Shown here one piece after another: positions 46,748-64,000 of a stretch of DNA of 64,000 nt. Position numbers and translations under genes: made by a program. Numbering within the stretch: the first letter of the stretch is position 1; every line of letters starts with the position of its first letter. The DNA comes from a virus: IMG/VR virus record IMGVR_UViG_3300048060_000074. One strand, written 5' to 3'. A model generated the notes under the pieces. It ran no database searches, was not told where the DNA came from, and saw only the letters and a program-made list of their open reading frames with translations.

Positions 46748-47557
46748 ATGATACCATTTTTCTTCGTCGGCAGTAGGCGTTCTGGTACAACGATTGTATG
46801 TCACATCATAAACTATCACCCTAACTTATATGTTCCGTTTGAGAGGTACATAATGTGGTTGCTGTACTGTATCAAGACAACAGCTACCATAAAGGCTCCT
46901 CCTGGTGGGGCGCTTGCCCCAATGCTTGTTACTCTAGAGCAGTCTGGAGGTGCCTTTCTCAGTTATCTACAAAGTGACCGTGGAGTTGAATCTACACGTG
47001 CGGCGTTTTTTGACGCGATGAACAATTGTAGAATGAGACGCGGAACAGGGAAATGGCGCAAGGAACTCGTTGCGATAGGAGAGAAAAATCCTCCAGAATA
47101 TACCGCCCCGGCGATGCAAGACTTTATCCTGGAAGCATTTCCAGAATCGAAGTTTATTCATGTTGTGCGACATCCCGTTGCTGTTGTTCATAGCCAAATG
47201 GGGTTTCTTTATAAAAGAATTGCGAGCAACAGCCTGGAAGTTTCCCCGCTTTGGAAAGAGCATCAGGAATCCATTCACTTTCTGAATTGGGCTGGAATAG
47301 AACAGCATGTGTTGAAGATACGTGCTCCGGTGCTTACTATTGGGTACGAGGACTTTGTCGACGATCCAGTCCATGAGTCCCATAGGCTGTATGAGTTCTT
47401 TGGTGTTTCTAGCAATGATTACATTGACCGACGGATCCGGCACAATGTTGTGGCTTCTGGGAATACTCAGTACGGCCACTTGTCTGTTCCTGAGAATGTC
47501 GAGGGCCTTGCCGAGCTTATGGATTGGTACGGGTACAAGAATTGTCCGGGAGGATAA
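46748..47557 (+). CDS. PAPS-dependent sulfotransferase
   Basis: FFVGSRRSGTT (5'-PSB), GEKNP, KFIHVVRHP (3'-PB), IGYEDFVDDP. Confidence 0.88.
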   Translation: MIPFFFVGSRRSGTTIVCHIINYHPNLYVPFERYIMWLLYCIKTTATIKAPPGGALAPMLVTLEQSGGAFLSYLQSDRGVESTRAAFFDAMNNCRMRRGTGKWRKELVAIGEKNPPEYTAPAMQDFILEAFPESKFIHVVRHPVAVVHSQMGFLYKRIASNSLEVSPLWKEHQESIHFLNWAGIEQHVLKIRAPVLTIGYEDFVDDPVHESHRLYEFFGVSSNDYIDRRIRHNVVASGNTQYGHLSVPENVEGLAELMDWYGYKNCPGG

Positions 47558-47559
47558 AA

Positions 47560-48834
47560 ATGCGAATTTGTATCATCTTGCCGCCTGCTCCGGGTCTTTT
47601 TGACCCGCGCACCAACATTCCTCTCGGGCCCCTCTATGTTGCAGCAGTTCTTGAGCGAGCAGGGCACGAGGTTGTGTTGGTCTCTCTGTTGGGGCACGAC
47701 ATCCCGGCGAGCTGGCCCGAAGCGGATTTGTATGCGATGGGATTCACGACCCCTCAAGCCGGTGCCGCGAAGGGCATCCTGGAACTGATTCGTAGCCAAT
47801 ATCCCGATGCTAAGGTGCTGGCTGCCGGTGCGCACCCGACCGCCGAGCCAGTCCAGACCTTGCTGCTAGGGTTTGACAGCGTACTTATCGGCGAGGCGGA
47901 CGTGACGATCCTTCTGGTCCTGGACGACATGCCGGACCTTGAAAGAATTTATTACTGCGTTCCTCCTACCAATCTAGATGCCATCCCGTTTCCCGCGCGC
48001 CATTTGTTGCCTCCAGAGGATTTGCAGAATAAGGCGTCTTCGGTTTTCAGAAAGAAGTATGAAGACAGACACATCGCCGGCATTATGGGGACTCGTGGAT
48101 GCCCTGGCAAATGCGCGTTTTGTTCCAATCGCCTCAGGTCTGGAACAAGACATCGCTCGGCAATCAACATTGTCGCAGAAATGCAAGAGCTGGTCAGTCT
48201 CGGGATCACATGTTTCAAATTTCAGGACGACACATTTACCTCTAGCCCAAAGCGAGTAATATCGCTTGGTGCGGAGGCGGAAAAGGCATTCTGGCAAGGG
48301 CAGATCGCGACGCGAATAATAACCAGGGCGGATACTTTTTCGAGGAGAATCATTCCGGCCCTGAAGCAGCTAAATGTAGAGGTCGTGTCGTTTGGGATCG
48401 AGAGTGGCAGCCAGAAGGTGCTCGATATGTCGCACAAGGGCGTTAAGATCGAGCAGGTCGAGCGTACACTGAGGCTGGCCCACGGGTTTGGATTCTCGAC
48501 GTTTGGGTACTTTGTGTTTGGGCTGCCTGGCGAGTGCGAAAAGACCGTCGACGAGACTATCGAGTTCTGGAGGCGAAACAAGCCGTACTTGGATGTCGCC
48601 GTACTCTCCATTTTTGTGCCATATGCAGGGTGTGACATTGCGAGACGGCCAGACAACTACCGCATGCACATTTTAGAACGTAATTTGAATCGTTACTGGA
48701 CCACGCAGAAGAGGTCTGTCATAGCATTGCCGTACTCCGTGAGCTTTGATCGGATGATTGAGTTGAAGCAGAAGGCACTCGAAGCGTTCGTCGAGCTAGG
48801 ATATGCCAGGCCAGAATGGGAGCACGATCTATGA
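47560..48834 (+). CDS. cobalamin-dependent radical SAM enzyme
   Basis: PLGPLYVAAVL and GAHPT B12 domain; TRGCPGKCAFC; GIESGSQ; FVFGLPGE. Confidence 0.9.
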   Translation: MRICIILPPAPGLFDPRTNIPLGPLYVAAVLERAGHEVVLVSLLGHDIPASWPEADLYAMGFTTPQAGAAKGILELIRSQYPDAKVLAAGAHPTAEPVQTLLLGFDSVLIGEADVTILLVLDDMPDLERIYYCVPPTNLDAIPFPARHLLPPEDLQNKASSVFRKKYEDRHIAGIMGTRGCPGKCAFCSNRLRSGTRHRSAINIVAEMQELVSLGITCFKFQDDTFTSSPKRVISLGAEAEKAFWQGQIATRIITRADTFSRRIIPALKQLNVEVVSFGIESGSQKVLDMSHKGVKIEQVERTLRLAHGFGFSTFGYFVFGLPGECEKTVDETIEFWRRNKPYLDVAVLSIFVPYAGCDIARRPDNYRMHILERNLNRYWTTQKRSVIALPYSVSFDRMIELKQKALEAFVELGYARPEWEHDL

Positions 48835-49595
48835 AGACCCTGAAATGGTTCAGATCGAGAGGCTATCTTTATCATCCAACCATAAGTTTCGTGCTGCATA
48901 CACACAGCATGTCCGGCGCTGCGGTTCAGATAGTGGACGATCTCCGGCAGTTTTCGGATTCGGAGATCATCGTTATAGATGATGGCAGTTCACACGACCA
49001 TACGCAACGGCTGGTTGGCTATCTCAATGGCGTGAATGAGTTTGTGCTGCACGCAAATGACCTATTCGACGTGATTGTTTTTAACCGTGTCTTCGCCTTT
49101 GCTCGTGGAAAGTACATTGCTGTTATGCAGGACGACGACAAGTACAAAGGCAAGGATTGGGTAACGAGAGCAGTCGGGCATTTGGACTGGGACCCAAAAC
49201 TCGCGATTCTTGGTGGGCGAATGAGAATCACTCTTCCTAAGGATGGCAAGGCCAGGGATGAAGGCGCCGGCGTATTTCAGTATGTCCAAGCTATTAACGC
49301 TTCTCCAATGTGGATCAGGAGAGAGGCGTTTCTCGAACTTGGCGGATTCGATATAGATTTCGCGCCGATGCTATGGCACGAGCCGGCCTTTTGCCTCAAG
49401 GCTTGGTTGAGCGGATATCACGTTGGCTGGTACAAGAGTGGCATCAGGTCGTGTGCAATCCCCACACGACAGAGGCGTAATGTGAAAGAGGAGCTTACGC
49501 GTGATGCGAGAAAAAAGAACTATGAACTTTTGATGGAGAGGTACGGTGACAAGCTGGATGGCATACGAGAGTGTGTAGAGAGAATGAACCAATGA
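48831..49595 (+). CDS. GT2 glycosyltransferase
   Basis: IVIDDGSSHD, VMQDDD, FLELGGFD. Confidence 0.9.
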   Translation: MKTLKWFRSRGYLYHPTISFVLHTHSMSGAAVQIVDDLRQFSDSEIIVIDDGSSHDHTQRLVGYLNGVNEFVLHANDLFDVIVFNRVFAFARGKYIAVMQDDDKYKGKDWVTRAVGHLDWDPKLAILGGRMRITLPKDGKARDEGAGVFQYVQAINASPMWIRREAFLELGGFDIDFAPMLWHEPAFCLKAWLSGYHVGWYKSGIRSCAIPTRQRRNVKEELTRDARKKNYELLMERYGDKLDGIRECVERMNQ

Positions 49596-50386
49596 AAACT
49601 CTTGAGTGGTGGGGATCCAGGGGGCACCTTCTTCATCCCAAGGTGAGTTTCCTGCTCGAAACGCACAACTTGAGTGAGGAAACTGTCGACATAGCAAAGG
49701 GGCTGAGGCAATATCCGAATGCCGAGACCATTATTATAGACGACGGCAGTACGCACGACCACACGAAGTGCATCGCCGACGGGCTTGGCGGTGTCAATGA
49801 ATACCTTCTGCACTTCAATGACCTCTTCGTCGTGCTGACCCAGAACCGGGCGGTCAGCTTTGCACGTGGTGAGTACATCGTCAAACTCCAGGATGACGAT
49901 GTTTATCCTGGTATGGACTGGATCGAGCGGGCGCTAGTGTTGTTCGATGAGCATAAAGACCTGGCTATTATTGGAGGCAGGGGGTCCGTGAGCCTCCCGG
50001 ATGGCTGGGATTTCTCAAGGCCACTGCCCTGGAGGCCACGCTGCCCCCTCCAGTTTCAGTTCGTCTCAATGGTCAACGAGGCCCCGATGTGGATACGGCG
50101 CTCTGACTTTTTGGGGCTTGGGGGTTTCGATCAAGAGTTCGCCCCGCACTACTGGGGGGAACAAGAACTTTGCCTGAGGGCCTGGCTTTCTGGCAAGTCT
50201 GTTGGGTGGTATGACTCTGGGTGGAGACGTCGTGGTGTGGATTTACGGCGGCGCATACGGGAGAAGGAACTGCTGCACTTGGAATCCTGGCGAAAGAACA
50301 GCGCCATTTTTGCCAGAAACTTTGCAGACAAGCTGGGTTATATAAACAGGCTTGTTTGTGCAAGAAACCAGGAGGAGTATCTGTGA
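49592..50386 (+). CDS. GT2 glycosyltransferase (tandem paralog of 48831)
   Basis: IIIDDGSTHD, KLQDDD, FLGLGGFD; same MKTLxW start. Confidence 0.9.
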   Translation: MKTLEWWGSRGHLLHPKVSFLLETHNLSEETVDIAKGLRQYPNAETIIIDDGSTHDHTKCIADGLGGVNEYLLHFNDLFVVLTQNRAVSFARGEYIVKLQDDDVYPGMDWIERALVLFDEHKDLAIIGGRGSVSLPDGWDFSRPLPWRPRCPLQFQFVSMVNEAPMWIRRSDFLGLGGFDQEFAPHYWGEQELCLRAWLSGKSVGWYDSGWRRRGVDLRRRIREKELLHLESWRKNSAIFARNFADKLGYINRLVCARNQEEYL

Positions 50387-51411
50387 AAAGAAATCTCTTA
50401 TTGATTATTGTGGACTGTTTGAGGCTAGACCGTGTAACTGACCAGTATATGCCCTGGCTAACTCAGTGGGGCAGGGAGAATACCGTATTCTCCAACCACT
50501 GGTCGTCTTCGCACTGTACAGACCCGGCTATCACGCATATGCTCTCCGGCAAACACCCAGACGAACTACGCCTGTTCTCGATGATGTATAGCGACAAGAG
50601 CTTTACAATCTCAGGCGATGTGGAGATGCTTTCGCAGACTGCCCAGGTCAATGGTTACAAGACCGGGTTTGTAACCAACCTTGGCAGATGGTATCGGCGC
50701 GGAGTCGATGTGTTCGTGGACAGCAGAGGATGGCCTGGCGTACAGATATTCCAGTCCGCCGCAGCGGTCATTGAGTCGTTTGAGGGCAAGCCGTGGTTTG
50801 TCATTGTGCATACAGACGACTGCCACATGAATTACACTGGAGGTAGCTATAGTAGCGCATGTCGGTCGGCGGACTCGAATATTCGGAAACTGATCGAGCT
50901 TGTCGGCGACGACACTGCTGTTTTTATCACCAGCGACCATGGCGAGGGACTTGGGCAGTCTGGCCTGGATGGGAAACCAATTCAGCAGCATGGTTATGGG
51001 CTATGGGACTTTTTGACGCATGTACCCTTGCTGACAAATACGATGCCGCGCGGGGAGTGCATTTGCCTACACGACGTAGGATGTCTATACAGCAGAATGC
51101 TGAGGTTTATTACTGGGCATTCGTCTTTGACCGCCAGGGAAGTAGTGTACAGAGGGTTGGTCTTCCAGTCAGGCGCAACGCCAAAGGCATTCCATCGCGG
51201 GGTTGTTCTGGGGGACGGAAGGCAGTTTGTTCGAGGCACCACAGAGAAGGGACACGAATACTACTGGGTTGGAGATTTCACAGACGAGGAGCGAAAAGAG
51301 ACCGAGTTGCAGGTGTCGCTGCACTGCCAAAAGTACGGTCGAAACTACGGTGTGTTCGAGGATGATGCTGTAGCAATGAGAAAGCTGAAAGGATTGGGGT
51401 ATTTTGAGTAG
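50383..51411 (+). CDS. sulfatase-like alkaline phosphatase superfamily enzyme
   Basis: IIVDCLRLD, SHCTDPAITHMLSG, VHTDDCH, ITSDHGE, HVPLL, LKGLGYF. Confidence 0.82.
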   Translation: MKRNLLLIIVDCLRLDRVTDQYMPWLTQWGRENTVFSNHWSSSHCTDPAITHMLSGKHPDELRLFSMMYSDKSFTISGDVEMLSQTAQVNGYKTGFVTNLGRWYRRGVDVFVDSRGWPGVQIFQSAAAVIESFEGKPWFVIVHTDDCHMNYTGGSYSSACRSADSNIRKLIELVGDDTAVFITSDHGEGLGQSGLDGKPIQQHGYGLWDFLTHVPLLTNTMPRGECICLHDVGCLYSRMLRFITGHSSLTAREVVYRGLVFQSGATPKAFHRGVVLGDGRQFVRGTTEKGHEYYWVGDFTDEERKETELQVSLHCQKYGRNYGVFEDDAVAMRKLKGLGYFE

Positions 51412-52003
51412 AATCATAGAACACAGTACGTTTGTTGATATAGACAAGATCATGTACACCTCCAGAGGCGTACATGGAGATAGCTGCACATCGGACGACT
51501 TGCTTCGTTTGTTGACAGTCAGGTACGGTGGGCATATCAAATTAGAACTCGGCCCTGGCCGCATAGGCGGAGCGCCGTGGGGGAAAGCGCCGTGGGCGAC
51601 GATTGGGCTCAATCATAGTTCCGATCCGCACTCCGACATTTATTATGACTTGAGCCGTGGGATCCCGCTTCCTGACAAATCTGTGGACGAGATACATTCA
51701 AATCAAGTTCTTGAGCACCTAAGAGACCCCATTAAGATCATGAACGAGCAATGGAGAGTGCTCAAGCCAGGCGGGTTTGTTTACGCCTGCGTGCCGCATT
51801 ATCTGGCGCCGTCGGCGTGTGGCGATCCAACTCACAGAACATTCTGGAGCGAAACATCGTTTCAGTACTACTGCTTACGCGATGATGGAACGCCGTTTGT
51901 AGACAGGTTTTCCGATTATGGAATCAAATGCAGGTTCATTTTGGAGGAGCATACATGGCAACGAATGGTGCACGTGACTGCGAAATTGCGCAAGCCCCTG
52001 TAG
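51404..52003 (+). CDS. class I SAM methyltransferase
   Basis: LELGPG, DLSRGIPLPDKSVD, VLEHL, RVLKPGG, GDPTH. Confidence 0.85.
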   Translation: MSRIIEHSTFVDIDKIMYTSRGVHGDSCTSDDLLRLLTVRYGGHIKLELGPGRIGGAPWGKAPWATIGLNHSSDPHSDIYYDLSRGIPLPDKSVDEIHSNQVLEHLRDPIKIMNEQWRVLKPGGFVYACVPHYLAPSACGDPTHRTFWSETSFQYYCLRDDGTPFVDRFSDYGIKCRFILEEHTWQRMVHVTAKLRKPL

Positions 52004-52590
52004 CTGTGCAAGATGGCAGATTTGCCGGAATACAGAAGCACGAGCTTGAATGGTGGACTAACTACAACTACATGCCGTGGGGTGAGTGGACGCAGTACCA
52101 CTCAAAACTTCATATGCATCTGCGACCATTCAGGTCTGTCGCCGACGTAGGAAGTGGGCCGGTGCCGTTTTTCTTGTCCGGTGTCATCTTCTATGAAGAC
52201 GCCATTGCAATCGACCCGTTGATAAGCAAGTACTTGTCGATTGAGCGATACAAGCAGTATCACGACAAGGAATTTGGCTGTTTTTCCAGGATAGAGGATG
52301 TCTGCGAGAAGATGTTCGATGGCGTGTTTTGTCTCAACACTATCGACCACGTTCGAGACCCAACCGCTTTCATCTCTGAACTGGATCGCATTCTTGAGCC
52401 TGGTGGCAGGTTGTATGTCTGTGTGGATGTAGAAAAGCCGCCGGACCCGCTTCATCCTCATATGATCCACGCCGACTGGCTCGACGAGCAGTTTTCATTT
52501 TACACGTATAAAACGCTCTTGCGGCAGGTCGTGCCGAGCTTCAAGTTCCAGAATGACCTTTATTGGTTTGTTGGAGATAAGGAGGAATAG
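51955..52590 (+). CDS. class I SAM methyltransferase
   Basis: GGAGGAG RBS; ADVGSGP, AIDPL, FDGVFCLNTIDH, RILEPGG. Confidence 0.85.
   Translation: MATNGARDCEIAQAPVAVQDGRFAGIQKHELEWWTNYNYMPWGEWTQYHSKLHMHLRPFRSVADVGSGPVPFFLSGVIFYEDAIAIDPLISKYLSIERYKQYHDKEFGCFSRIEDVCEKMFDGVFCLNTIDHVRDPTAFISELDRILEPGGRLYVCVDVEKPPDPLHPHMIHADWLDEQFSFYTYKTLLRQVVPSFKFQNDLYWFVGDKEE
52498..52513. promoter_or_regulatory. 16-bp palindrome TTTTACACGTATAAAA (intragenic)
   Basis: exact match inside a coding frame (FYTYK). Confidence 0.8.
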
Positions 52591-53555
52591 TGGGAGCAAA
52601 GTACGCGCATATAAGCCTTTTCAAGACCAGGGATGCTGCCGGTAGACACCTAGGGGGCGTGGAGCAGTTTGGCATGTATCTCAAACGGGCGATTCCAGAG
52701 ATGAGTCTATTTTCCTGGCCCGATTACCCAGAGTTCGGGGAGAATGGGCATCTCCAGGATTATGAGAAGGCAGAGATGTTGAACACCTGGCTGCTCAAGT
52801 CGGGCCTCGTTGACGAAAACACCATTGTCATCACCGATGGTTACTGGGCCAATGGCCTTCAGGGCAAGGTGGCAAGGCTGATATCTGTCGTCCATGGTTC
52901 GTACTGGGGACGATACATGATCCACCAGGTGTTCAAATGGGGTGATGAGGTCATTGGTATGAATCATGTCAACGCCCAGTTCGACATCTGGGAAGATGAC
53001 CGCGTGGAAGTGGTCTGTGTGTCACAGGCCAGCGCGGACGAGCTTGGGGAGTTTGGCGCTGGGTGCGAGTGCGAGGTGACGGTCATCGAGCACGGAATAG
53101 ACCTTGAGAGATTTCGGCCTCTTCCCGATGCTAGCCACGGCCTTTGGATGCACGGCGCCACCTCCGGGCGCAAGGGATATGACGTCATCGTTCGTCTTGC
53201 CGCAATGGGAAAGCATTACATCGAACCAATGAACGAGCGTAGTGGTGTCCCGGAGAACAAGGTTGCCAGGTTGAATGAGGCAAAATGCCTGCTTGCGCCT
53301 ACACGGCACGAGGGCAACTCGTATCTACTGCTAGAAGCCCTGGCATGTGGGGTCCCTCTCATTACGTACTACACCGGCCTGGCCGAGAGCATGGACGAAC
53401 GGGTAGGTATCGTGACTGATAACCTAGATCCATACAACTTTGCAAGGTTGATGGACAGCTTTGACCCATCGTTGTATGACCCGAGAGGGTGGGCCGAAGA
53501 GTTCGCGTCCTTTGATCGTTTTGCAATACCGTGGAGGGTATACCTTGATATCTAA
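52590..53555 (+). CDS. GT4 glycosyltransferase
   Basis: IEHGID, RKGY, RHEGNSYLLLEALACGVP. Confidence 0.9.
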   Translation: MGAKYAHISLFKTRDAAGRHLGGVEQFGMYLKRAIPEMSLFSWPDYPEFGENGHLQDYEKAEMLNTWLLKSGLVDENTIVITDGYWANGLQGKVARLISVVHGSYWGRYMIHQVFKWGDEVIGMNHVNAQFDIWEDDRVEVVCVSQASADELGEFGAGCECEVTVIEHGIDLERFRPLPDASHGLWMHGATSGRKGYDVIVRLAAMGKHYIEPMNERSGVPENKVARLNEAKCLLAPTRHEGNSYLLLEALACGVPLITYYTGLAESMDERVGIVTDNLDPYNFARLMDSFDPSLYDPRGWAEEFASFDRFAIPWRVYLDI

Positions 53556-56500
53556 CTTGCTCGGACATGATTTCTTTGCGTTGCCGAGAATACTGGTTCA
53601 TTGTCCTACCAAGGACAGGGACTCAGTTCTAGGACGGATGCTTGCCAGCCTGATAAAGCAAACCTACAGAAACTTTGACGTCGTAGTTTACAACGATGGC
53701 AGCCAGCAGGTGGGCACTACACAGTCTACAGACTATAATCTTGCTTGCTTGAAAGCGGGCGGGATGCGCGAGGTTTGGCTGGAAGAAGGCAGCCACATTA
53801 GCCAGGCCCACAACCACAACCTGGCACTCTACGATCCTGCGTTCCGCGACTACAAGTACTTTGTCCGCATGGACGACGATGTGCTCTTGAACGCATTCGC
53901 CCTGGAGCGGATGCTGAATACGATCATTCGGCATGGTGCGGCAGCCGTTGGTGGGTTGTGGTTTGAGAATGAATTTGCAGCCGAGAGCTTGTACGACAGG
54001 ATGGTTGCAGAGGTAGGCATTGCTCCTCCGCTCGACGGCAAGTGCGGGCCGTTTAACTCGAATTGGCAACAGAGGGTTTACCACAGCGTCGACGAGTTGA
54101 TGAGAGTCGAGCATGTCTACTCGGTGTGCATCTACGATACGGAGAAAATGCGGCAGGCTGGTGGTTGGCCTGAAGTCTATGGCCGTGGCGTGGCGCACGG
54201 CGAGGAAACTGACGGAACGTTCCGCTTGCATTTGACGGGCGAGGATCTGTACATCAATCCTTGCATCACCGGAGAGCACCTTCGGGCAGGCAGCGGGGGA
54301 ATTCGGTCCGTTGCCAATTTGCAGCAGATACAAGCTCACGACCTCCGCAAGTGGCAGATACGGCTGCCGGATATCAAGAGGATCAATTTCAAGCCGACTG
54401 TCGCCGTGGAGTGCAGGCATTCCTACGGGCTTGGTGGTGCAGAGCGGCTGTTCTACCACACTGTTCACCTGTTGCAGCAGAGCGGCAAGTTCGAGGTTGT
54501 CCACCCGATTTTCCCATCGGTGCACTTTTCGCCGGACGAAGTGATGGACGCCTTCGGCTTCAGTTATGAGGATGCTGCGCCGCTTGACGAATATGACGTG
54601 CTCATTGTCATAGGGCACGAGCCACAACACATCACCAAGGCCAAGCATAAGATATTCTACTGCCTGTTCCCAATTCCGACCGTTAGTCGGGCCGACCTGA
54701 TCGACTTTGACCTGATCCTTGGAATCAGCGGATACACAGCGGAATGGATTCGAGAGTGGTGGAAGTACAATGTTGGCTATATCTATCCTCCAGTGGAGCC
54801 AATAGGTTTCGACCCAGAAGAGAAAGAAAACATCATTCTGATGGTGGGCAGGTGCGTTCCGCACAAAAACCCCTTGTGGCTGATGCAAAAGTTCATGCAA
54901 TGGAAATTCCACGGGTGGGAGCTTCATTTCGTTTCTGCAACGTGCATTGCCGACCACGCGGCGTATGAGGCGGACGTGCTTGAATATGCTGCCAAGCATG
55001 ACAACATTGTGGTTCACCAGAACATTTCTATCAATGGGGTGGAGATGCTGTACCGTCGGTCCAAAATCTTATGGGCGGCGAATGGAATGCTAGGGAAATT
55101 GGCGCAACAGGCCGAGCATTTTGGGTACACGCCCGTCGAGGCTTGGGGCGCTGGATGTATCCCAATCGTGTACAATCGTGGCGGACATAAAGAGACGGTT
55201 GATTCACCGTTCAGGTGGTCTACTGAGTCAGAACTTCTGATCGCGACAGAAATCTCGATGGGCTCCTTCGGGAAGATCGATAACGTCGTCGACATGTCCA
55301 GGTTCGACCCGGATGAGTACGCGTTGGTTTGGGAGCAATACATCAGGCGCGTGAATGCGATGGCTCTGGAACTGCCTATGGCAGAAGTCGTCGAGGTCGA
55401 GGCGCGCGCGCCGCACATCGCGATGATTACGGATAGCCCCTACTTCCCCGAGCACGGGACAGGGGTTAGCAGTGGATTTGGAGTCGTCGCAGGACAGATC
55501 GCCAGGCGGTTCCTTGAGGAAAAGTACAGGCTGTCCATTTTGGGAATGATGGATCACGTGATACCAAAGTCCTCTCAGCCATTGCCGTTCGACTTATTCC
55601 CGACGATAGGCGATCCAGAGGCGCTACGAATTATCCCCATGTTCTTGAACTGGGCCAAGCCATACGATGTCATTTTTATGCTGTACGACCCAGGTGGATT
55701 ATTGCCCCGTATCGAGACCTTCCAGAATACCGGGATGGCACCGGAGCCTGTCATTGCCTATTTCCCGGTCGAGGGTGCAAACACGATCAATGCAAGTATT
55801 CCCGGGCTCATTGAAAGGGTGCATTTCCCAGTCGTGTACTGCGAGTCCGCCAAGCGGCTGATTCAACAGTATGTATCGTGTGACGAGATTTACGTCGCGC
55901 CTCACGGAATCGACCATGCCAAGTTTGGACCGCCCCCTGCGCGCGACAGAAACCGCGTGAGGGAATTGGTAGACTGGGACAATCGGTTTATCGTGATGGC
56001 GGTTGGCACGAACAAAAGAGTGAAGAACCACCCTGTGCTCATCAAAGCGATACGTATCTTGATGGGAAGAGGATACGACGACATCTCACTGTACTTGCAT
56101 ACCACAAAAGACCCGACAAGTCCATACCTTGCCGGGTGGAATCTAAAGTCGGTGATCGACCAGGAGTCTGCTAGGTCTGGGCTGGAAGTCGCCAGGCATA
56201 TCTACATGCCGATCCACGACCCGTACCATGGCGCGGCATACAAGTGGGACGATCTGGATATCTGGCGGATGACCAGGCCGTCGACCGCTGATGAGCGCAA
56301 GGGGCTATTCAACGCCCTGGACTTTATCACCCGCTACCAGATCGCCGATTTGTACGTCGATATCAGCGGGGCAGAGGGGTTTGGCCTTCCGCCGCTAGAG
56401 GCCGCTGCGTGTGGAGTTCCAGTGGTCAGCATAGATGATGGAATGGTTCGATCAGAGATTCATTCCAAGTATTGCCACATGATCGAGCCGGACTTCTGGA

Positions 56501-56706
56501 CTGAATGGCACACCGGCACAATGCTTGCCGGGGTGTTCCCAGAAGAACTAGCAGACGAGATCGAGGATCTCTATCACGACCGAAAGTTCATGCACAAGTT
56601 CGATGCTGCACAGGCCGGGATCATGGAAGACCTGCCTTGGCGAAAATCGACCGATGTTTTTGTCGGCCTGGTGGAGAAGGCGGTTGCCATATCAAGAACG
56701 ACCTGA
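53545..56706 (+). CDS. three-domain glycosyltransferase (GT2 + GT4 + GT4)
   Basis: YFVRMDDD; EHFGYTPVEAWGAGC; EGFGLPPLEAAACGVP; TTG start after GGAGG. Confidence 0.88.
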   Translation: MISNLLGHDFFALPRILVHCPTKDRDSVLGRMLASLIKQTYRNFDVVVYNDGSQQVGTTQSTDYNLACLKAGGMREVWLEEGSHISQAHNHNLALYDPAFRDYKYFVRMDDDVLLNAFALERMLNTIIRHGAAAVGGLWFENEFAAESLYDRMVAEVGIAPPLDGKCGPFNSNWQQRVYHSVDELMRVEHVYSVCIYDTEKMRQAGGWPEVYGRGVAHGEETDGTFRLHLTGEDLYINPCITGEHLRAGSGGIRSVANLQQIQAHDLRKWQIRLPDIKRINFKPTVAVECRHSYGLGGAERLFYHTVHLLQQSGKFEVVHPIFPSVHFSPDEVMDAFGFSYEDAAPLDEYDVLIVIGHEPQHITKAKHKIFYCLFPIPTVSRADLIDFDLILGISGYTAEWIREWWKYNVGYIYPPVEPIGFDPEEKENIILMVGRCVPHKNPLWLMQKFMQWKFHGWELHFVSATCIADHAAYEADVLEYAAKHDNIVVHQNISINGVEMLYRRSKILWAANGMLGKLAQQAEHFGYTPVEAWGAGCIPIVYNRGGHKETVDSPFRWSTESELLIATEISMGSFGKIDNVVDMSRFDPDEYALVWEQYIRRVNAMALELPMAEVVEVEARAPHIAMITDSPYFPEHGTGVSSGFGVVAGQIARRFLEEKYRLSILGMMDHVIPKSSQPLPFDLFPTIGDPEALRIIPMFLNWAKPYDVIFMLYDPGGLLPRIETFQNTGMAPEPVIAYFPVEGANTINASIPGLIERVHFPVVYCESAKRLIQQYVSCDEIYVAPHGIDHAKFGPPPARDRNRVRELVDWDNRFIVMAVGTNKRVKNHPVLIKAIRILMGRGYDDISLYLHTTKDPTSPYLAGWNLKSVIDQESARSGLEVARHIYMPIHDPYHGAAYKWDDLDIWRMTRPSTADERKGLFNALDFITRYQIADLYVDISGAEGFGLPPLEAAACGVPVVSIDDGMVRSEIHSKYCHMIEPDFWTEWHTGTMLAGVFPEELADEIEDLYHDRKFMHKFDAAQAGIMEDLPWRKSTDVFVGLVEKAVAISRTT

Positions 56707-56731: not shown

Positions 56732-56887
56732 GTGAGCACATGCAACAAGCCTGACTGGATTAGGTGCCCTTACTGCCAGCGCCGATTTGGCTATGCTGAG
56801 ACTGTACTGACGGCGATCATAGTTTTCTATTGCACCAGATGCAAAATGTCTTTTCGGTTCATCCTTGGGGTAAATGTAGAGTACTAA
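56732..56887 (+). CDS. Mu Com-like zinc-finger protein
   Basis: IRCPYCQRRF...IVFYCTRCK; start uncertain. Confidence 0.5.
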   Translation: MSTCNKPDWIRCPYCQRRFGYAETVLTAIIVFYCTRCKMSFRFILGVNVEY

Positions 56888-56890
56888 TCA

Positions 56891-56919
56891 TTGACTCCAG
56901 ACACATAATGTGGTAGAAT
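56891..56919 (+). promoter_or_regulatory. sigma70-type promoter
   Basis: TTGACT-17-TAGAAT. Confidence 0.75.
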
Positions 56920-56949
56920 AGCATATAGAAGAGCCTGAAGGGGAAACCG

Positions 56950-56982
56950 AGGGGCCGCAAGATATCTTGCGGCCCCTTTTTT
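56950..56982 (+). terminator. intrinsic terminator
   Basis: 28-bp perfect palindrome AGGGGCCGCAAGATATCTTGCGGCCCCT followed by a T-run. Confidence 0.85.
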
Positions 56983-56988
56983 GTTTCA

Positions 56989-57004
56989 TTTTACACGTAT
57001 AAAA
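56989..57004. promoter_or_regulatory. 16-bp palindrome TTTTACACGTATAAAA
   Basis: between the terminator and the 1213-aa gene. Confidence 0.9.
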
Positions 57005-57045
57005 CGGAGATTGAATTGCTCTTGGATTAAGCGGGGCGAAACGAT

Positions 57046-60000
57046 ATGATTAGGTATTACCTGGGGAGGATCAGAGATCAGGCGATGGGTGGCACCCGTG
57101 TGACACGGGCAGCCATCGCTTTGACGATGATCGATCTGTCGGGTGGGGATCGTTATCGCGCTTCAGTCCCGTTTGACTACGGTTTCGACTGGGCAGTAAT
57201 CGAGATACATGCGCCGGAAGCGACGCAGGCGTTGATTGCTGCCGAGAGCGACATGTACCCTCTGCCATTCTACGATGCGCTGGGTCAAGATTTATCCCTC
57301 GATGACACCCTGGCGGATATACCGAGCGCGGATAGAGCGACTTTCCTGACGCGGCTTGAAGAACGACGCATCCCGTGGCCCTCTCTCCCACTGATGACGA
57401 CGCTCCGCGATGCGCTTGAGACCCTCAAAAAGACCGTTCGCATTACGCAGATGATGAAAGATGCATACCTCAAAGGGTACGCACTTTCAACGACGATTGC
57501 AGGGATTCCAGTGGCGGCGCGAGATAGGGCTCAGAACTGGATGCTGGCTCGTGGTCTAAGCATTGGGTGGATCACGGGTGTGACGACGGTCAAGCAAGTC
57601 CTGCTCTACGTTCTCGACAACTTTGTCTGGGCGGCATTTGAAAATGCGAGGATAGAAGAGCGCGCGTATTTCATAAAACAGTTTGGCATGTCACCAGAAC
57701 AGATGTTCCGCATCATGGTGACGGTCTCGGATGACTTTAACAGGTCGGACGAGGACTTGGATGCCAGTTCAGACTGGAGTGAGGACACGGGCGTCTGGGC
57801 AGTTGTTAGCAATGCTGTTCAGAACACAACTGGCACCGGAGGCGACTACTGGCTCGCCCGATGGATAGGGACAAGTCTTTCTGGTTCAGATAACTTTGTC
57901 CAAGTCACTGTCGATAAGGCATCAGATAACGCCGTTGGCCCTGGGCCGGCGGTACGCAAGGCTGCGGGCACAGGTGATTCAAACAGTGATTGCTATGCCA
58001 CTGTAGCGTTCAACGATGGCTACTATCTTATAAGGCTAGATAACAGCACTGACACTACATTGGATTCCTGGGGCAACCCAGGATTTCAGCCAATAGATCT
58101 CCGTATAGAGGCTATCGGCAGCTCTATTGAGGGTTTTGTTTCTGGCACTTCGAGACTCACGGCGACAGATGCAACATACGGCTCTGGCGGCGTCGGTATG
58201 TGCTTTGGCGAGTTTGTAATTGGCGGGGACCAGACGGAATTTGACGATTGGTCGGCGGGTGACCTTGTTTCTGGAAGTGCGTCCGTGAGCCCTTCTGTGT
58301 CGCCGTCAGTTTCACCGTCGGTCTCGCCAAGCGTATCGCCGAGTGCTAGTGAGTCACCTAGCGTGAGTCCTTCGGTGAGTCCTTCAGTCTCACCGTCGAT
58401 CAGCCCGTCTGCGTCAGAATCGCCGTCCGTTTCCCCATCGGTGAGCCCGAGTGTTTCACCTTCGATCTCGCCATCGGCCTCGGAGTCCCCGTCGGTTTCG
58501 CCTTCAGTCTCGCCGTCGATCAGCCCAAGCGCAAGCGAGTCGCCATCTGTCAGTCCATCGGTGTCGCCAAGCGTGTCGCCAAGCGTGTCGCCATCAGTCA
58601 GTCCATCTGCGTCTGAATCTCCCAGTGTCTCGCCTAGCGTTTCTCCATCCGTCTCGCCATCGGCGTCCGAGTCGGCATCGGCCAGCCCTTCCGTCTCGCC
58701 ATCGGTGAGTCCGAGTGTATCGCCGTCGGTCTCGCCATCGGCGTCTGTCTCGCCGTCGATTTCCCCATCGGTCTCTCCGTCGGTCAGTCCAAGCGCGTCA
58801 GAGTCGCCGTCTGTCTCGCCCAGTATTAGCCCATCGTCTTCCGAGAGCCCGAGCGTTAGCCCAAGCGCATCTGTATCACCGTCCGTTAGCCCGAGTGTAA
58901 GTCCTTCAGTAAGCCCTTCGGTGAGCCCAAGCGTTTCACCGTCAATTAGCCCTTCGGCTTCCGAGAGTCCTTCAGTTTCTCCATCTGCATCTGTGTCGCC
59001 ATCTGCATCGGTTTCGCCTAGTGTGAGCCCTTCTATATCGCCATCCGTCTCGCCGTCGGCTTCAGTGTCACCCAGTGTCTCACCTAGCGTGTCACCGTCA
59101 GTGTCACCGAGCATATCTCCATCGGCTTCGGCGTCAGCCAGTGTGTCTCCATCGGTCTCGCCAAGTGTGTCGCCGTCGATTTCTCCATCGGCCTCGGTCT
59201 CGCCTAGTGCGGCTGGGAGCCCGAGCGCGAGTTTATCGCCCAGTGCATCCGTCTCGCCATCCGTCTCGCCATCGGTTTCTCCTAGCGTCTCGCCGTCGGT
59301 CAGTCCTAGTGCCAGTGTCAGCCCAAGCGCGAGTGTTTCGCCAAGCGTTTCTCCCTCGGCGTCGGTTTCCCCATCCGTCAGCCCGTCAGCGTCCGTCTCG
59401 CCTAGCGTGTCACCGTCTGCGAGCGTGTCACCGTCGACCAGCCCTTCTATATCACCTAGCGCCAGCGAATCTCCATCTATATCGCCGTCGGCGTCAGTCT
59501 CGCCTTCGGCCAGCGTGAGTCCTAGCATAAGCCCAAGCGCGTCGGAATCTCCGTCGGTTAGCCCGAGCGTAAGCCCTAGTGTTAGCCCTTCCGCCTCCGT
59601 CTCGCCATCGGTGAGTCCTAGCGCCAGCATCTCTCCTAGCGCGAGCGTCTCACCCAGTGCGGCGGTCAGCCCAAGCGCAAGTCTGTCGCCAAGCGCATCC
59701 GTGTCGCCTTCGGTCTCGCCGTCGGTCTCTCCTAGCGCCAGTGTGAGTCCCAGTGCCTCCGAGTCGCCATCAATCAGCCCGTCGGCTTCTGTAAGCCCAA
59801 GCGCGAGCGTTTCGCCGTCTATCAGCCCAAGCGCCTCTGTGTCACCATCGGCTAGCGAGTCGCCATCTATAAGCCCGTCGGCCAGCGTGAGTCCGTCGCT
59901 ATCTCCGAGTGCCAGTGAAAGTCCGTCCGTTTCACCATCGGCGTCAATTTCTCCTAGTGTATCGCCGTCCGTGTCCGCGTCAGAGTCGCCAAGTGTAAGC

Positions 60001-60687
60001 CCCTCGGCAAGCATATCGCCAAGCCCATCACTCGGCGATATTCCGTGGTACGAGGCAACATCTCACTCATCTAGCGTCGGCGGTATATCATCCGGAACGA
60101 TCTGGAGCACACATAACGACGATGGCGACGAGGTGGATGTAGACGAGACTACTGGCGCTCCTGGATGGGTCTACGACCTGGTCTTCGGTGAAAACGAGAG
60201 TGTCCCGACATTTAATCTATACGCGAATTTTCTGGCGTGGTATGATGGGAACATTGGACATACTGTCAAGTTGCAACAATGGAACTATACAAATACGCAG
60301 TGGGACAATGTTACGGTCGCTGCTCAGGACTTCCAGGATGAGGTGTCTGAACAGTCGTACCAGTTTACCCTGTTGGCGTCGGGTGACTATATCTCTGGTG
60401 GAGAGATTCAGCTACGTGTTAATCACTCTTCGCCAGGAAATGTAACTCACCAGTTTCATCTGAACCAAGTCTATTTGTCGCTTACTGGAAGCCCATCGCC
60501 AAGCGTCTCGCCAAGCATTAGCCCATCTGCGTCGCTTTCTCCGTCTGCATCTGTGTCGCCAAGCGCGAGCCCGTCGCCATCGCCTGCGCCAGAAGCGGTG
60601 TTTGATTTTGAATTACACGTAAAGCAGAATCAGTCGTTTGATCTGCATGTAAAGCAGGCATTTAGTTTTGATTTAGGAGTGGAATAG
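57046..60687 (+). CDS. large mucin-like Ser/Pro-repeat protein, probably virion- or surface-associated
   Basis: N-terminal helical domain, beta-sandwich-like domain (DDFNRSD...FDDWSAG), ~587-aa SPSX tract, C-terminal beta domain. Confidence 0.85.
58270..60030 (+). repeat. coding tandem repeat ([18 protein letters not shown])n with scrambled synonymous codons
   Basis: direct reading of protein and DNA; short second tract ~60487-60590. Confidence 0.95.
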
Positions 60688-60692
60688 CGCCA

Positions 60693-62234
60693 ATGCTATC
60701 TGTGCTTATCCCGTCGAGAAATGAACTGTTCCTACAGAAGACCGTCGATGATATTTTCGACAATGCTGCTGGAGATGTTGAGTGCATAGTTTCGCTCGAC
60801 GGCTACTGGCCCGACCCGCCGTTGAAAGAACATCCGAAGCTGCACGTGATACACCGTTCCAAGCCTGCCGGGATGCGTGCGGGTATCAATGCATGTGCAA
60901 CGGTGGCCCGTGGCAAGTTCATAATGAAATGTGACGCGCATTGCGCTTTCGCGGAAGGGTTCGACGAGGTGTTGCAGGCAGACTGTGATGATAACTGGGT
61001 CGTGATTCCCCGAAGATACTCGCTCAACCCGGACACCTGGGCGCCTCAGGAAAGCAGCCCTGGCGTGTGGCGAATGCCCATCGACTATGAGTTTCTGTCC
61101 TATCCGTACTGGAAAGAGGATCACTATGGCATCCACGGTACACGATGGGGAGAGCGTACCAAGCAGCGATTGAATGACCCAGAGTACGAGATCGACGATA
61201 ACATGGGCTTCCAGGGAAGCTGTTGGTTCACCACCAGGGAACATTTCCTGGAGCGTATAGGTGGCTTGCAGGAAGAGGGGTACGGGACATTCATTGGTGA
61301 GCCGCAGGAGGTGGGCAACAAAACCTGGCTTGGTGGCGGACGGCTTGTAACGAACAAAAAAACATGGTACAGCCATCTCCATAAAGGTAAGCGGTTTGGC
61401 AGGGGATACTCTGTCAGCAGGCGTGGACTGAGAGATGGCAATGTCTACTCGGTGCAGTACTGGATGACCAACGCGTGGCCTGGTAGAATTCACGACATTG
61501 AGTGGCTGGTAGAAAAGTTCTGGCCTGTACCGTCGTGGCCGGACGACAGAAGTCTTTGGAGGTTGAAGGATGAGGATCTGCCGGAATGGGCGGTGGCGGA
61601 CAAAATGAGTAAAGTAGAGATATCAGACGCCAACAGCTATATATTGAAGAAGTACAAGCCAGAGATACCGCGTCGAATGCCCATCAACTTGCCCATTGGC
61701 AGGGACGATTTGCCTGGGCTGTTCGCGGAATTGGGCTACAAGGTAGGCGCCGAGATAGGGATCGAGAGGGGTCTATACTCTGAGAAACTGTGCCAGGCTG
61801 GCCTCAGACTCTACGCGATAGACGCCTGGACAGCCTACAGCGGATATCGCGAACACGTCAGCCAGAGCAAGTTAGATAGGTTTTACAACGAGACACGGGA
61901 CAGGCTGGCCGGATATGACCACCAGCTAATTCGATGTTTCAGCATGGATGCTCTCAAGCTCATACCAGATGGGTCTTTGGATTTCGTGTACATCGACGGG
62001 AACCACGAGTTTCGACATGCGACCGACGATACCGACGGGTGGGGTAAGAAGGTCAGGGTCGGTGGTATAATAGCCGGCCACGATTTCAGGAGGAACAAGC
62101 GGAAGGCGTACCGTTGTCACGTAAAAGACGTCGTACATGCCTGGACGTACAGCCATGAGATTAGTCCGTGGTTCATTACGGGTGGAGACCGCCGCTCGAA
62201 GAGTTGGTTCTGGGTGAAGACAGCCGATGAATAG
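60693..62234 (+). CDS. GT-A glycosyltransferase (ppGalNAc-T-like motifs) fused to a class I methyltransferase
   Basis: MKCDAHC (DxH), FIGEPQEVGNKTWLGGG; C-terminal AEIGIERG, DFVYIDGNH, GGIIAGHD. Confidence 0.85.
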   Translation: MLSVLIPSRNELFLQKTVDDIFDNAAGDVECIVSLDGYWPDPPLKEHPKLHVIHRSKPAGMRAGINACATVARGKFIMKCDAHCAFAEGFDEVLQADCDDNWVVIPRRYSLNPDTWAPQESSPGVWRMPIDYEFLSYPYWKEDHYGIHGTRWGERTKQRLNDPEYEIDDNMGFQGSCWFTTREHFLERIGGLQEEGYGTFIGEPQEVGNKTWLGGGRLVTNKKTWYSHLHKGKRFGRGYSVSRRGLRDGNVYSVQYWMTNAWPGRIHDIEWLVEKFWPVPSWPDDRSLWRLKDEDLPEWAVADKMSKVEISDANSYILKKYKPEIPRRMPINLPIGRDDLPGLFAELGYKVGAEIGIERGLYSEKLCQAGLRLYAIDAWTAYSGYREHVSQSKLDRFYNETRDRLAGYDHQLIRCFSMDALKLIPDGSLDFVYIDGNHEFRHATDDTDGWGKKVRVGGIIAGHDFRRNKRKAYRCHVKDVVHAWTYSHEISPWFITGGDRRSKSWFWVKTADE

Positions 62235-63192
62235 GTGGTATCAGAACGTTCCGGTGCCGGGCGCGGTGTACGAGGGTACTGAGAGGAAGGAAAGCCGGTT
62301 CTGGAACGAAGGAAAGTGGGACAACTTCATCCAGCCATTGCTGCCAGTGGAACGCAGGACATTCATCGACATTGGCTGCAATGCCGGGCTGATGCTCAAG
62401 CTGGCGCGAGAGGCTGGTTTTCAGCGCGTGATTGGAATTGAGGGCAGCCGACGTGCGATGAAACAGGCCGAGCAGTACAGGGAGAGTGTCGGCGGTGACT
62501 GGTCACTGGTTTTACAGGTTGCAGGTGGGGGACTCGATCTGAAGCAACTTCCGTTGGCCGACGTGGTGCTGTTGAGCAACATGCACTACTATATCCCCGT
62601 GCCGGATTTTGCGAGATTGGTCGACACGCTCCGCCACAACACGTTATACTGCATCGTGGTGTCTGCGAGGGTGAAGCGACGGGGAGGCAATGCGCTCTAC
62701 GATCTTTACTCGGTCCGGGCTTATTTCCGAGACTGGATGGAGACAGGAGTGGTCGAGGGTGTGCCGGAGGAGGGCGATCCTGCCCCACGACGCGGGATGT
62801 ACGGTGTCTCATTTAAGGGAGGTCTGCATAGCCAGAATGTAGGTTCGCTCTACGGCTGGTGGCGGGGGGAATGCCTGCGATCTAAAAAGTTTCATTTCAA
62901 TGCGCTGCCAGCGGCGCTAGAGGAATTCTTCTCTCGGGTACTCTCCGGCGAGCACTTTGCTTATGAGAATACCCTGCTCTACGAGTACTGGAGGACACGG
63001 GAGCCTAACAGGCCACCAGAGAGTGCCCTGCGACGGCTTGTGCAGAAGCGTGAGTTAGCGGAAAATGTGAGGGACAACGGCATACGCGAGCCGGTCTTTT
63101 TTGACTATCGGGGGAATCTCATCGACGGACTCCACAAACTATGTATTGCGAAGCAGTTGGGCTATAAACGCATTTTGGTGAGAAGGCTATGA
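62227..63192 (+). CDS. class I methyltransferase with a C-terminal ParB/Srx-like domain
   Basis: FIDIGCNAG; GIREPV...LIDGLHKLCIAKQLG. Confidence 0.75.
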   Translation: MNRWYQNVPVPGAVYEGTERKESRFWNEGKWDNFIQPLLPVERRTFIDIGCNAGLMLKLAREAGFQRVIGIEGSRRAMKQAEQYRESVGGDWSLVLQVAGGGLDLKQLPLADVVLLSNMHYYIPVPDFARLVDTLRHNTLYCIVVSARVKRRGGNALYDLYSVRAYFRDWMETGVVEGVPEEGDPAPRRGMYGVSFKGGLHSQNVGSLYGWWRGECLRSKKFHFNALPAALEEFFSRVLSGEHFAYENTLLYEYWRTREPNRPPESALRRLVQKRELAENVRDNGIREPVFFDYRGNLIDGLHKLCIAKQLGYKRILVRRL

Positions 63193-63208
63193 TTCCAATG
63201 GCTAGGAG

Positions 63209-63490
63209 TTAGTCGTGAGTCACAACAACCCAGTCTGTGCCAAGGAGATCGCCCTCGCTGACGATCCATGTACACCACTTGTAAAATTTGGTTTTCATAT
63301 CGTAACTGATCTCCAAAAAGCTGTTGCGCAAGGCGCAGTAAATCTCGTTGTCGTTCCAGTCCAGCCTTGTTATGGACTTTCCCTCGATGACTGCCCTTAT
63401 GGCGGTTGGGAAGTCCATCAAGATCGGGGTAGGGCTTTCGCTCAGCGGGACGGCGGGCGTGGGCGACTGGGAGATTGGCTTACTGGACAT
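63209..63490 (-). CDS. DUF2829 / Tad2-like anti-defence sponge protein
   Basis: MDFPTAIRAVIEGKSITRLDWN...WIVSEGDLLGTDWVVV; AAGGAG RBS. Confidence 0.7.
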   Translation of the reverse strand: MSSKPISQSPTPAVPLSESPTPILMDFPTAIRAVIEGKSITRLDWNDNEIYCALRNSFLEISYDMKTKFYKWCTWIVSEGDLLGTDWVVVTHD

Positions 63491-63627
63491 TTCGGAAACT
63501 CCTTTTCGTGTTTTTCTTGGATTAAGGACTCGATCATAGCACGCCCGCTTATGCCGAACTTTTTGCAAAGTTCGGCGAGCATGGCCTTATGCTTATCAGA
63601 CAGGCGAAAGCTGGTCGACTTTTTCAT
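63442..63627 (-). CDS. ribbon-helix-helix regulator
   Basis: MKKSTSFRLSDKHKAMLAELCKKFGISGRAMIESLI. Confidence 0.75.
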   Translation of the reverse strand: MKKSTSFRLSDKHKAMLAELCKKFGISGRAMIESLIQEKHEKEFPKCPVSQSPSRPRPPSR

Positions 63628-63634
63628 TGGCATT

Positions 63635-63663
63635 ATTGTACCACATAATGAGCTACGTGTCAA
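63635..63663 (-). promoter_or_regulatory. sigma70 promoter of the RHH-Tad2 cassette
   Basis: TTGACA-17-TACAAT with extended TG. Confidence 0.85.
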
Positions 63664-63672
63664 GGAGACAGC

Positions 63673-64000
63673 GTGTCCACATTAGGCGTGCTTATCCCGA
63701 GCCGTAACGAGATGTTCCTCCAGAGAACTATCAAGGACATCTTGGAACATATCGAGGGAGATACGAACATCATCGCCATTCTCGACGGTGCTTGGGCAGA
63801 CCCGCCCATCGAAGACGATCCGCGAGTGATGCTGGTCTACCACCCCCAGAGCATTGGGCAGCGGGCTGCGACGAATGAGGCTGCACGGTTGTCCAGCGCA
63901 AAGTTCATAATGAAATGCGACGCTCATTGCTCGTTCGATCAAGGGTTCGACGTCAAGTTGATGGCTCACTTCGAGGATGACTGGACGGTTGTCCCAGAAA
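63673..64000 (+). CDS. second ppGalNAc-T-like GT-A glycosyltransferase (runs off the window)
   Basis: Manual translation MSTLGVLIPSRNEMFLQRTI...KFIMKCDAHCSFDQGFD; paralog of 60693; AAGGAG RBS. Confidence 0.85.
   Translation, partial: MSTLGVLIPSRNEMFLQRTIKDILEHIEGDTNIIAILDGAWADPPIEDDPRVMLVYHPQSIGQRAATNEAARLSSAKFIMKCDAHCSFDQGFDVKLMAHFEDDWTVVPE

Follow-up and report, generated by a model that had tools for sequence, protein, structure and literature searches.

What would a phage modify with an island of glycosyltransferases, methyltransferases, and other carbohydrate-tailoring enzymes placed among the genes that build its head? The question is raised by a 64,000-nucleotide (nt) stretch of the IMG/VR virus record IMGVR_UViG_3300048060_000074 (this whole stretch is referred to as the window, and positions are counted from its first letter), which is part of a phage genome of ~89.5 kb from sediment. 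At the center of the island lies P0001, a 1213-amino-acid (aa) protein with a long Ser-x repeat, followed by GT-A1 and GT-A2, two glycosyltransferases (GTs) that resemble family GT27, the eukaryotic polypeptide N-acetylgalactosaminyltransferases (ppGalNAc-Ts) that initiate mucin O-glycosylation. The reading that we favor, with a probability of roughly 0.6, is that these GTs would O-glycosylate, in the cytoplasm, the Ser-x stalk of P0001, which as part of that mechanism would be a lectin-bearing phage fiber or adhesin-type protein. The core of this interpretation, a Ser-x fiber together with GT27-like GTs and methyltransferases, is supported by the comparisons set out below; the term "mucin-type" (alpha-GalNAc) is used by analogy only. 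The features that carry the argument are these:

56891-56978, + strand: promoter-like site (TTGACT-17-TAGAAT), then a terminator-like hairpin (13-bp stem, T tract), just 5′ of P0001
57046-60687, + strand: P0001, 1213 aa
57046-57711, + strand: P0001 N-terminal helical module of ~220 aa, from a widespread family of ~200-aa modules
57709-58305, + strand: P0001 ConA-like/CBM66-like carbohydrate-binding domain (residues ~222-420)
58303-60015, + strand: P0001 (Ser-x)n stalk (residues 420-990), the proposed O-glycan acceptor
60016-60687, + strand: P0001 C-terminal beta-rich domain (~991-1147), second short Ser/Pro tract (~1148-1186), and short tail
60693-62234, + strand: GT-A1, a GT27-like D-x-H GT (residues 1-290) fused to Methyltransf_24 (PF00535, PF13578)
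62227-63192, + strand: methyltransferase of 321 aa (PF13489, PF08003)
63673-64000, + strand: GT-A2, a second GT27-like D-x-H GT, with its N-terminus in the window (full 530 aa at L001:11447-13039)

The identity of the two GTs is the first pillar of this reading. GT-A1, which starts 5 nt past the P0001 stop codon with a GGAG inside the end of P0001, and GT-A2 are paralogs in their N-terminal parts, residues 1-290 of GT-A1 and the first 300 of GT-A2 (33% identity over 303 aa, E 1e-54), in a family whose residues D81, H83, and H228 are invariant in an alignment of 36 members. When the profile of this GT-A family was compared with the Protein Data Bank (PDB), GT27 enzymes accounted for 15 of the 21 matches, GalNAc-T1 was matched along its entire catalytic domain at E 5e-12 (profile positions 3-255 of 284), and the D-x-H motif and distal His aligned with DAHC and GHVF of GalNAc-T1 (predicted Mn2+ ligands). 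The top PDB matches of GT-A2 by phmmer were ppGalNAc-T10, T2, and T1. With the AlphaFold model of GT-A1 (mean pLDDT 93.5) as the query, Foldseek returned ppGalNAc-Ts as all of the top 50 PDB and all of the top 30 Swiss-Prot entries, and a VIA search of 48,161 representative chains, independent of Foldseek, gave GT27 representatives Z scores of 25.4 and 24.5, followed by a fucosyltransferase at 18.5 and then by chondroitin polymerase, SpsA, TarS, and others. By profile and predicted fold, GT-A1 and GT-A2 are closest to the GT27 polypeptide GalNAc-transferases, which is where the profile and structure searches proposed in an earlier, sequence-only reading of this DNA place the pair beside the repeat gene. 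GT-A1 is accordingly best described as a candidate polypeptide O-glycosyltransferase joined to a putative sugar methyltransferase. Neither enzyme has a hydrophobic segment (maximum KD19 0.77 for GT-A1 and 0.96 for GT-A2), and the C-terminal domain of GT-A2 is phage-only, with no match in Pfam or the PDB and only viral clusters in the Atlas. A complex predicted for GT-A1, Mn, and residues 440-480 of the stalk scored 0.00, which speaks neither for nor against binding.

The second pillar is the putative acceptor. The sequence-only reading described a tract of ~587 residues, roughly half of them serine; the composition stands, whereas the length is revised to 571 aa (residues 420-990), with 284 Ser (49.7%), 118 Pro, 81 Val, and 50 Ala. 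Serine occupies 283 of the 285 alternate positions, in 117 SP-initiated units that are mainly [14 protein letters not shown] and SPSASE, and Pro lies at −1, +1, or +3 of 277 of the 284 serines. These are the positions at which Pro favors ppGalNAc-T action, and the acceptor logic predicted from the P0001 sequence fits that preference; that the two GT-A paralogs might each correspond to one of the SPSx serines, which are not equivalent, is speculation. In ~83 kb of the ~89.5-kb genome, P0001 is the only Ser/Thr/Pro-rich open reading frame (ORF). The domains that flank the stalk are of a different nature. A 40-homolog profile of residues 222-420 matched the CBM66 chains of Bacillus subtilis levanase (4AZZ, 4B1L, 4B1M) at E 7e-11 in the PDB, and PF13385 and PF06439 match some of the homologs. 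The N-terminal module (residues 1-222) has no match in the PDB or the Atlas, and a single-sequence AlphaFold run on residues 1-425 gave no usable model (pLDDT 34). The C-terminal domain is 41% identical to that of a Ser-repeat protein in locus L012, recurs at the end of the Ser-repeat proteins of other phages, and has as its nearest Atlas cluster one that is 97% viral. No close relatives turned up when IMG/VR was scanned with the P0001 N-terminus, the three-domain GT of the island, and the capsid protein as queries.

A protein of such low complexity invites the suspicion that it is not a protein at all, and the gene callers indeed place a 642-aa antisense ORF (58086-60014, − strand; rich in Gly, Asp, Leu, and Thr) over the stalk and miss the 1213-aa gene. 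The + frame is nevertheless the real coding frame, because a single ORF of 3.6 kb joins non-repeat N- and C-terminal domains, because serine is maintained through all six of its codons (TCN 180, AGY 104), which points to selection on the protein and not to a DNA repeat, and because the gene is base-identical across three independent assemblies; the phage sequence itself was recovered from three sediment-metagenome assemblies. The same antisense miscall of the Ser-x tract recurs in L007, L009, and other loci. Full-length P0001 and most of its protein class are therefore missing from protein databases, which is why a word search with the whole protein returned no match.

The third pillar is the recurrence of the pair. 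Ser-rich repeat ORFs stood beside GTs in all eight of the phage contexts first examined by six-frame scan, contexts that differ in terminase, portal, and capsid types; GT-A itself was present in seven, the eighth (L004) having a different GT set and a Thr/Pro tract. In several of them, such as L007 and L008, the repeat ORF abuts or overlaps the start of GT-A. The family has 3667 metagenome relatives at E<1e-5 and is found in at least 578 viral stretches of IMG/VR, the best 80 loci of which (1.26 Mb) were examined, with the proviso that some are duplicates of one phage and that many of the negatives are short contigs. Ser/Pro-rich repeat ORFs occur in 62 of these 80 loci anchored on GT-A. They number 96, of which 93 lie on the GT-A strand and 39 within 100 bp of a module gene, at a median distance of ~0.5 kb. 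By tblastn, the conserved core consists of GT-A1, Methyltransf_24, and GT-A2, and the 321-aa methyltransferase, copies of which are 66% identical in L007 and 38% identical in L016, is a frequent companion of this core in close relatives. The converse search, anchored on the repeat, recovered the module in four of seven confirmed loci. Among the species genomes of GTDB, the family is confined to metagenome-assembled genomes (MAGs), assigned to Patescibacteria of the candidate phyla radiation (CPR), Anaerolineales, Planctomycetota, "Gammaproteobacteria" bins, and a few archaea, and a co-oriented Ser/Pro-repeat ORF is present in 23 of 74 such loci (24 if a shorter tract is counted). Among 50,697 deposited phage genomes, tblastn with GT-A1 matched none, even at E 1e-3. 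The co-occurrence of repeat proteins and GTs, which the sequence-only reading had singled out as a check, is thus borne out: Ser/Pro-repeat proteins accompany GT-As in many unrelated phage contigs.

Locus L004, from an SU10-like phage, encodes at 9352-10776 a distant P0001 homolog with a CBM66-like domain, 35% identity, and a Thr/Pro-rich end, next to a Glyco_transf_7C and GT2 enzyme, an epimerase, and a methyltransferase. Its Glyco_transf_7C GT was considered as a homolog of GT-A2 and rejected, the two not being homologous, and the L004 set may represent an independent solution to the same task.

Where the island sits, and what it lacks, bear on the compartment in which it would act. The early region of the genome is divergent and lies on the − strand, with the terminase and portal genes following on the + strand; beyond GT-A2, locus L001 holds, in order, a 104-aa gene, a 415-aa scaffold-like gene, and genes for gpD-like, gpE-like capsid, and tail proteins. 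This order places the island inside the head-morphogenesis block, between the portal on its 5′ side and the scaffold, decoration, and capsid genes on its 3′ side:

41401-43065, + strand: large terminase
42803-46177, + strand: Mu-type portal (PF06074, 1.6e-19)
46736-47557, + strand: sulfotransferase, without a hydrophobic segment (PF13469 1.1e-19, PF00685 2e-6)
47524-48834, + strand: B12-binding radical S-adenosylmethionine (SAM) enzyme (PF04055 4.5e-22, PF02310 1.8e-10)
48816-49595, + strand: GT2 (PF00535 2e-11)
49571-50386, + strand: GT2 (PF00535 1e-11)
50221-51411, + strand: alkaline phosphatase (AlkP)-superfamily, sulfatase-family enzyme (PF00884 2.4e-17)
51404-52003, + strand: SAM methyltransferase (PF08241 8e-10)
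51928-52590, + strand: SAM methyltransferase (PF08241 1.5e-7, PF13489)
52590-53555, + strand: GT4 (PF13692, PF00534)
53461-56706, + strand: triple GT, GT2+GT4+GT4 (PF00535 at residues 49-167; PF00534 twice, 1e-25; phrog_2170); called in L001 with a start at 53545 (1053 aa)
3′ of the scaffold-like gene in L001: gpD-like decoration gene (PF02924, 3e-5)
L001:15147-16346: gpE-like major capsid gene (PF03864, 2e-11)

All of the enzyme genes that the sequence-only reading had named were recovered with Pfam, all on the + strand: six genes that together encode eight GT domains, as well as four SAM methyltransferase domains, the sulfotransferase, the AlkP-family enzyme, and the B12 radical SAM enzyme. 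Its statement that the island directly follows the portal likewise holds, the portal ending at 46177 and the sulfotransferase starting at 46736. The portal ORF, at 1124 aa, is about twice the usual length; its match to PF06074 and phrog_113 is confined to residues ~200-630, which leaves a large C-terminal extension beyond the match.

Membrane-spanning segments are absent from all 14 island proteins (maximum KD19 1.71), which look soluble from their sequences. No Pfam family for Wzx, Wzy, an ABC exporter, or an initiating phosphoglycosyl transferase was found among them. This lack of membrane segments, Wzx, Wzy, and phosphoglycosyl transferase argues for protein glycosylation in the cytoplasm. 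The proposed mechanism would run as follows. In the cytoplasm of the infected cell, soluble GT-A1 and GT-A2 would transfer sugars from host nucleotide-sugar pools onto the serines of the P0001 stalk, after which the fused Methyltransf_24 domain and the 321-aa methyltransferase would methylate these stalk sugars. The stalk would thereby become a stiff glycoprotein of mucin-like character that resists proteases and presents the carbohydrate-binding domains for attachment to glycans of the host or the matrix, and in this lineage the upstream arm, from the sulfotransferase to the triple GT, would plausibly extend and decorate the same glycan. We infer the acceptor role of the stalk serines, the identity, methylation, and sulfation of the sugars, the part of the upstream arm, and attachment to the virion.

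Several observations weigh against this scheme. The phage enzymes lack the ricin-type lectin domain of GT27 and have a methyltransferase or the phage-only domain instead. There are no nucleotide-sugar synthesis genes within the island, and there were no RNA runs with the locus. The linkage is also imperfect in both directions. Three short contigs (L013, L014, and L015) encode runs of giant TPSI/SPSV-type proteins, 561 to >2500 aa long, and the 14 kb fetched from each lacks a GT27-like module; conversely, 18 of the 80 viral loci and ~50 of the 74 MAG loci carry GT-A with no Ser/Pro-rich ORF in the fetched flank. On a 318-kb MAG contig (L023, 9992-19912), a chromosomal cassette near the gene for ribosomal protein L1 contains several GT-A genes, two Methyltransf_24 genes, and then two ~371-aa paralogs, with no Ser/Pro-repeat ORF. 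Acceptors of this kind are therefore not an obligatory partner of the family. The sequence-only reading had held that homologous islands without any Ser/Thr-rich protein would speak against it, and this objection applies in part. Finally, apart from one weak match to the triple GT, no homologs of the upstream arm were found in the 80 related viral loci, and a strong terminator-like hairpin separates this arm from P0001.

The last of these observations bears on what the upstream arm does. In the phage of the window, this accessory arm, which lies between the portal and the capsid genes, is unusually rich. The B12 radical SAM enzyme, with only sub-threshold NCBIfam matches to HpnJ, PhpK, and MCR Gln C-methyltransferase types, is probably a tailoring enzyme of the C- or P-methyltransferase type. 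Because the ORF of the AlkP-family enzyme shares 165 nt with the GT2 before it, the enzyme probably starts 3′ of 50386; since its translation contains no C/S-x-P-x-R formylglycine motif, it is perhaps not a classical sulfatase and may act as a phospho- or sulfo-ester transferase or esterase. Locus L009 carries an analogous, non-homologous tailoring set of three sulfotransferases, DegT, a nucleotidyltransferase, and SIS. Such analogous sets fit a lineage-specific elaboration of a common core glycan, without proving it. The "methylated and sulfated brush" of the sequence-only reading finds no support, the arm of sulfotransferase, radical SAM, AlkP-family, GT2, and GT4 enzymes being lineage-specific and followed by the terminator before P0001.

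The same properties of the arm leave room for an unlikely alternative in which the island, or the upstream arm, remodels glycans of the host envelope (lipopolysaccharide, exopolysaccharide, S-layer, or cell-wall polymers), for instance in superinfection exclusion or receptor masking, with P0001 an unglycosylated fiber and its Ser/Pro tract a flexible linker. Polysaccharide clusters typically contain GTs of families 2 and 4 along with sulfotransferases and transferases of the AlkP family, there are weak NCBIfam matches to enzymes of exopolysaccharide, colanic acid, and teichuronic acid synthesis and of the NoeE type, and the terminator sets the lineage-specific arm off from P0001. Serotype-converting phage GTs are, moreover, well known (Markine-Goriaynoff 2004, as cited in PMC12619734). 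What speaks against envelope remodeling is that the island has no initiating phosphoglycosyl transferase, flippase, polymerase, or membrane segment, that it lies within the late structural block, and that its two GT-As resemble GT27 and keep a close linkage to Ser/Pro-repeat genes in different lineages.

A distinctly unlikely account grants the glycosylation and moves its product away from the particle: P0001 would leave the cell at lysis, or appear on the surface of infected cells, and serve as a decoy resembling mucin, as a binder of matrix, or as a protective coat. We infer the membership of P0001 in the virion from gene position alone, P0001 has its own promoter-like site, and related cassettes are found in cellular (CPR) genomes, in which a fiber must be a cell product. 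P0001, however, has no signal peptide or hydrophobic segment, and its gene lies between the portal and the scaffold and capsid genes on the same strand. There are, furthermore, homologs of ~400 aa that consist of both N-terminal modules of P0001 without the stalk, and these adjoin LamG-type proteins typical of fiber modules.

It is improbable that the GTs act mainly on other virion proteins (capsid, decoration, or tail) rather than on P0001. The island abuts the head genes, and the known targets of phage virion glycosylation are C-terminal tails of capsid and tail-tube proteins (mycobacteriophages; Freeman et al. 2023, as cited in PMC12619734). In the present phage, the capsid, gpD-like decoration, and downstream tail proteins are without Ser/Thr-rich tails, and the linkage of GT-A to Ser/Pro repeats holds across different portal and capsid types. 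Hypermodification of DNA, with glycans built on hydroxymethylated bases for restriction evasion, is very improbable and has gained no support since the sequence-only reading offered it as an alternative: phage GTs that hypermodify DNA with varied glycans do exist (Pyle et al. 2024, as cited in PMC12619734), and the window has a separate radical-SAM gene at 9341-10369, but neither a hydroxymethylase of the thymidylate-synthase type nor any other base-modification family appeared among 30 more window ORFs (a test that leaves aside ~7 kb of the genome and many of the small ORFs), which matched RNase H, RuvC, FtsK-like, metallophosphoesterase, and that separate radical-SAM enzyme, while the core GTs match polypeptide transferases best by fold and profile and the linkage to Ser/Pro repeats would be left without explanation.

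Glycosylation of the P0001 stalk by the GT-A pair thus has to be placed among known systems, none of which it reproduces. It shares with GT27 the GT-A domain, the D-x-H motif and distal His, the aligned Gal/GalNAc-T motif region, and, in its putative acceptor, the Ser/Pro-rich repeats. In contrast to GT27, the sequence identity of GT-A1 and GT-A2 to those enzymes is only 15-22%, the phage enzymes have no type II membrane anchor and would act in the cytoplasm rather than the Golgi, and the putative phage acceptors are almost purely Ser instead of Thr-rich. Giant viruses, through the chlorovirus A064R-type GT/methyltransferase and the fibril clusters of mimivirus, combine multi-domain GTs with methyltransferases to place methylated glycans on their own surface independently of host membranes; they are eukaryotic viruses that use other GT families and N-linked or fibril-specific glycans. 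Homology to these giant-virus systems was compared only at the level of generic GT-A matches.

The nearest working analogy is the glycosylation locus of the serine-rich repeat protein (SRRP) adhesins, with remote GT27 homologs as the enzymes. SRRPs such as Fap1, GspB, SraP, and PsrP, which are served by GtfA/B and accessory Sec, are likewise dedicated substrates with a long, strict (Ser-x)n stalk and binding domains, and they are O-glycosylated in the cytosol, before export, by several soluble GTs encoded beside the substrate gene (PMC7948813; bioRxiv 10.1101/219105). Unlike those loci, the island is phage-encoded within a structural gene block, has no SecA2, SecY2, or Asp among its genes and no LPXTG anchor at the P0001 C-terminus, employs putative initiators that are GT27-like GT-A rather than GT4 enzymes, and fills the x positions of P0001 with Pro, Val, Ala, Ile, and Glu. 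GT4 domains are present in the island, yet no NCBIfam or Pfam model names them GtfA or GtfB. Virion glycosylation in mycobacteriophages (Che8, Corndog, and Myrna) is a precedent (Freeman et al. 2023, as cited in PMC12619734): there too the GTs are encoded near structural genes and act on the proteins of the phage itself in the host cytoplasm. The acceptors in those phages are short C-terminal tails of capsid and tail-tube proteins, whereas here a dedicated 1213-aa protein is present and the capsid has no such tail. The island is neither a canonical member of GT27 nor an SRRP/accessory Sec system, and it is also unlike the mycobacteriophage type in its enzymes and acceptors.

To our knowledge, GT27-type polypeptide O-glycosyltransferases are regarded as a eukaryotic Golgi invention, and virus-encoded protein O-glycosylation has so far been described in only a few mycobacteriophages and giant viruses. 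No description of the cassette came up in literature searches on GT27, mucin-type, or serine-rich systems of phages. It is a tentative and rather doubtful extension of the present reading that tailed phages and CPR bacteria possess a large sister family of GT27, made up of soluble enzymes, that builds true mucin-like (Ser-x)n fibers, and that in this lineage the glycan is also sulfated, C-methylated, and phospho-decorated, yielding a viral "mucin" on the particle. Were the present reading confirmed, protein O-glycosylation encoded by viruses would be a common trait of environmental tailed phages, a large uncharacterized prokaryotic and viral branch of the initiators of animal mucin glycosylation would have been identified, and a class of long glycoprotein fibers, systematically missed by gene callers that call the antisense strand, would have been revealed. 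Such findings would bear on phage adhesion, particle stability, shielding from immunity and defense, and the evolutionary origin of GT27, and would provide a source of soluble enzymes for mucin-like glycopeptides.

The module also contains a gene of another kind, inserted ahead of GT-A2 on the opposite strand, and the early region of the window holds two further enzymes:

63209-63568, − strand: Tad2-like (DUF2829) gene (PF11195 1e-10), inserted within the module
9341-10369, − strand: second radical-SAM protein (Radical_SAM + Fer4_12, non-B12), early region
7559-8782, − strand: metallophosphoesterase, early region

The Tad2-like gene has a strong promoter of its own at 63663-63635, matching at 11 of 12 positions, and an ORF that overlaps it on the + strand (63215-63685) is probably spurious. 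One contig (L003, JGI 3300048496) that was considered as a variant of the island was rejected as such, being the same phage at 99.986% identity; in that assembly two indels break the frame of GT-A2, through either a real variant or an assembly error. Tad2-like matches recur in 12 of the 80 viral loci and also in L005 (8007-8210), L007 (14847-15146), and L069, so that the position of this gene could reflect an insertion hotspot for anti-defense genes or a functional tie to the module.

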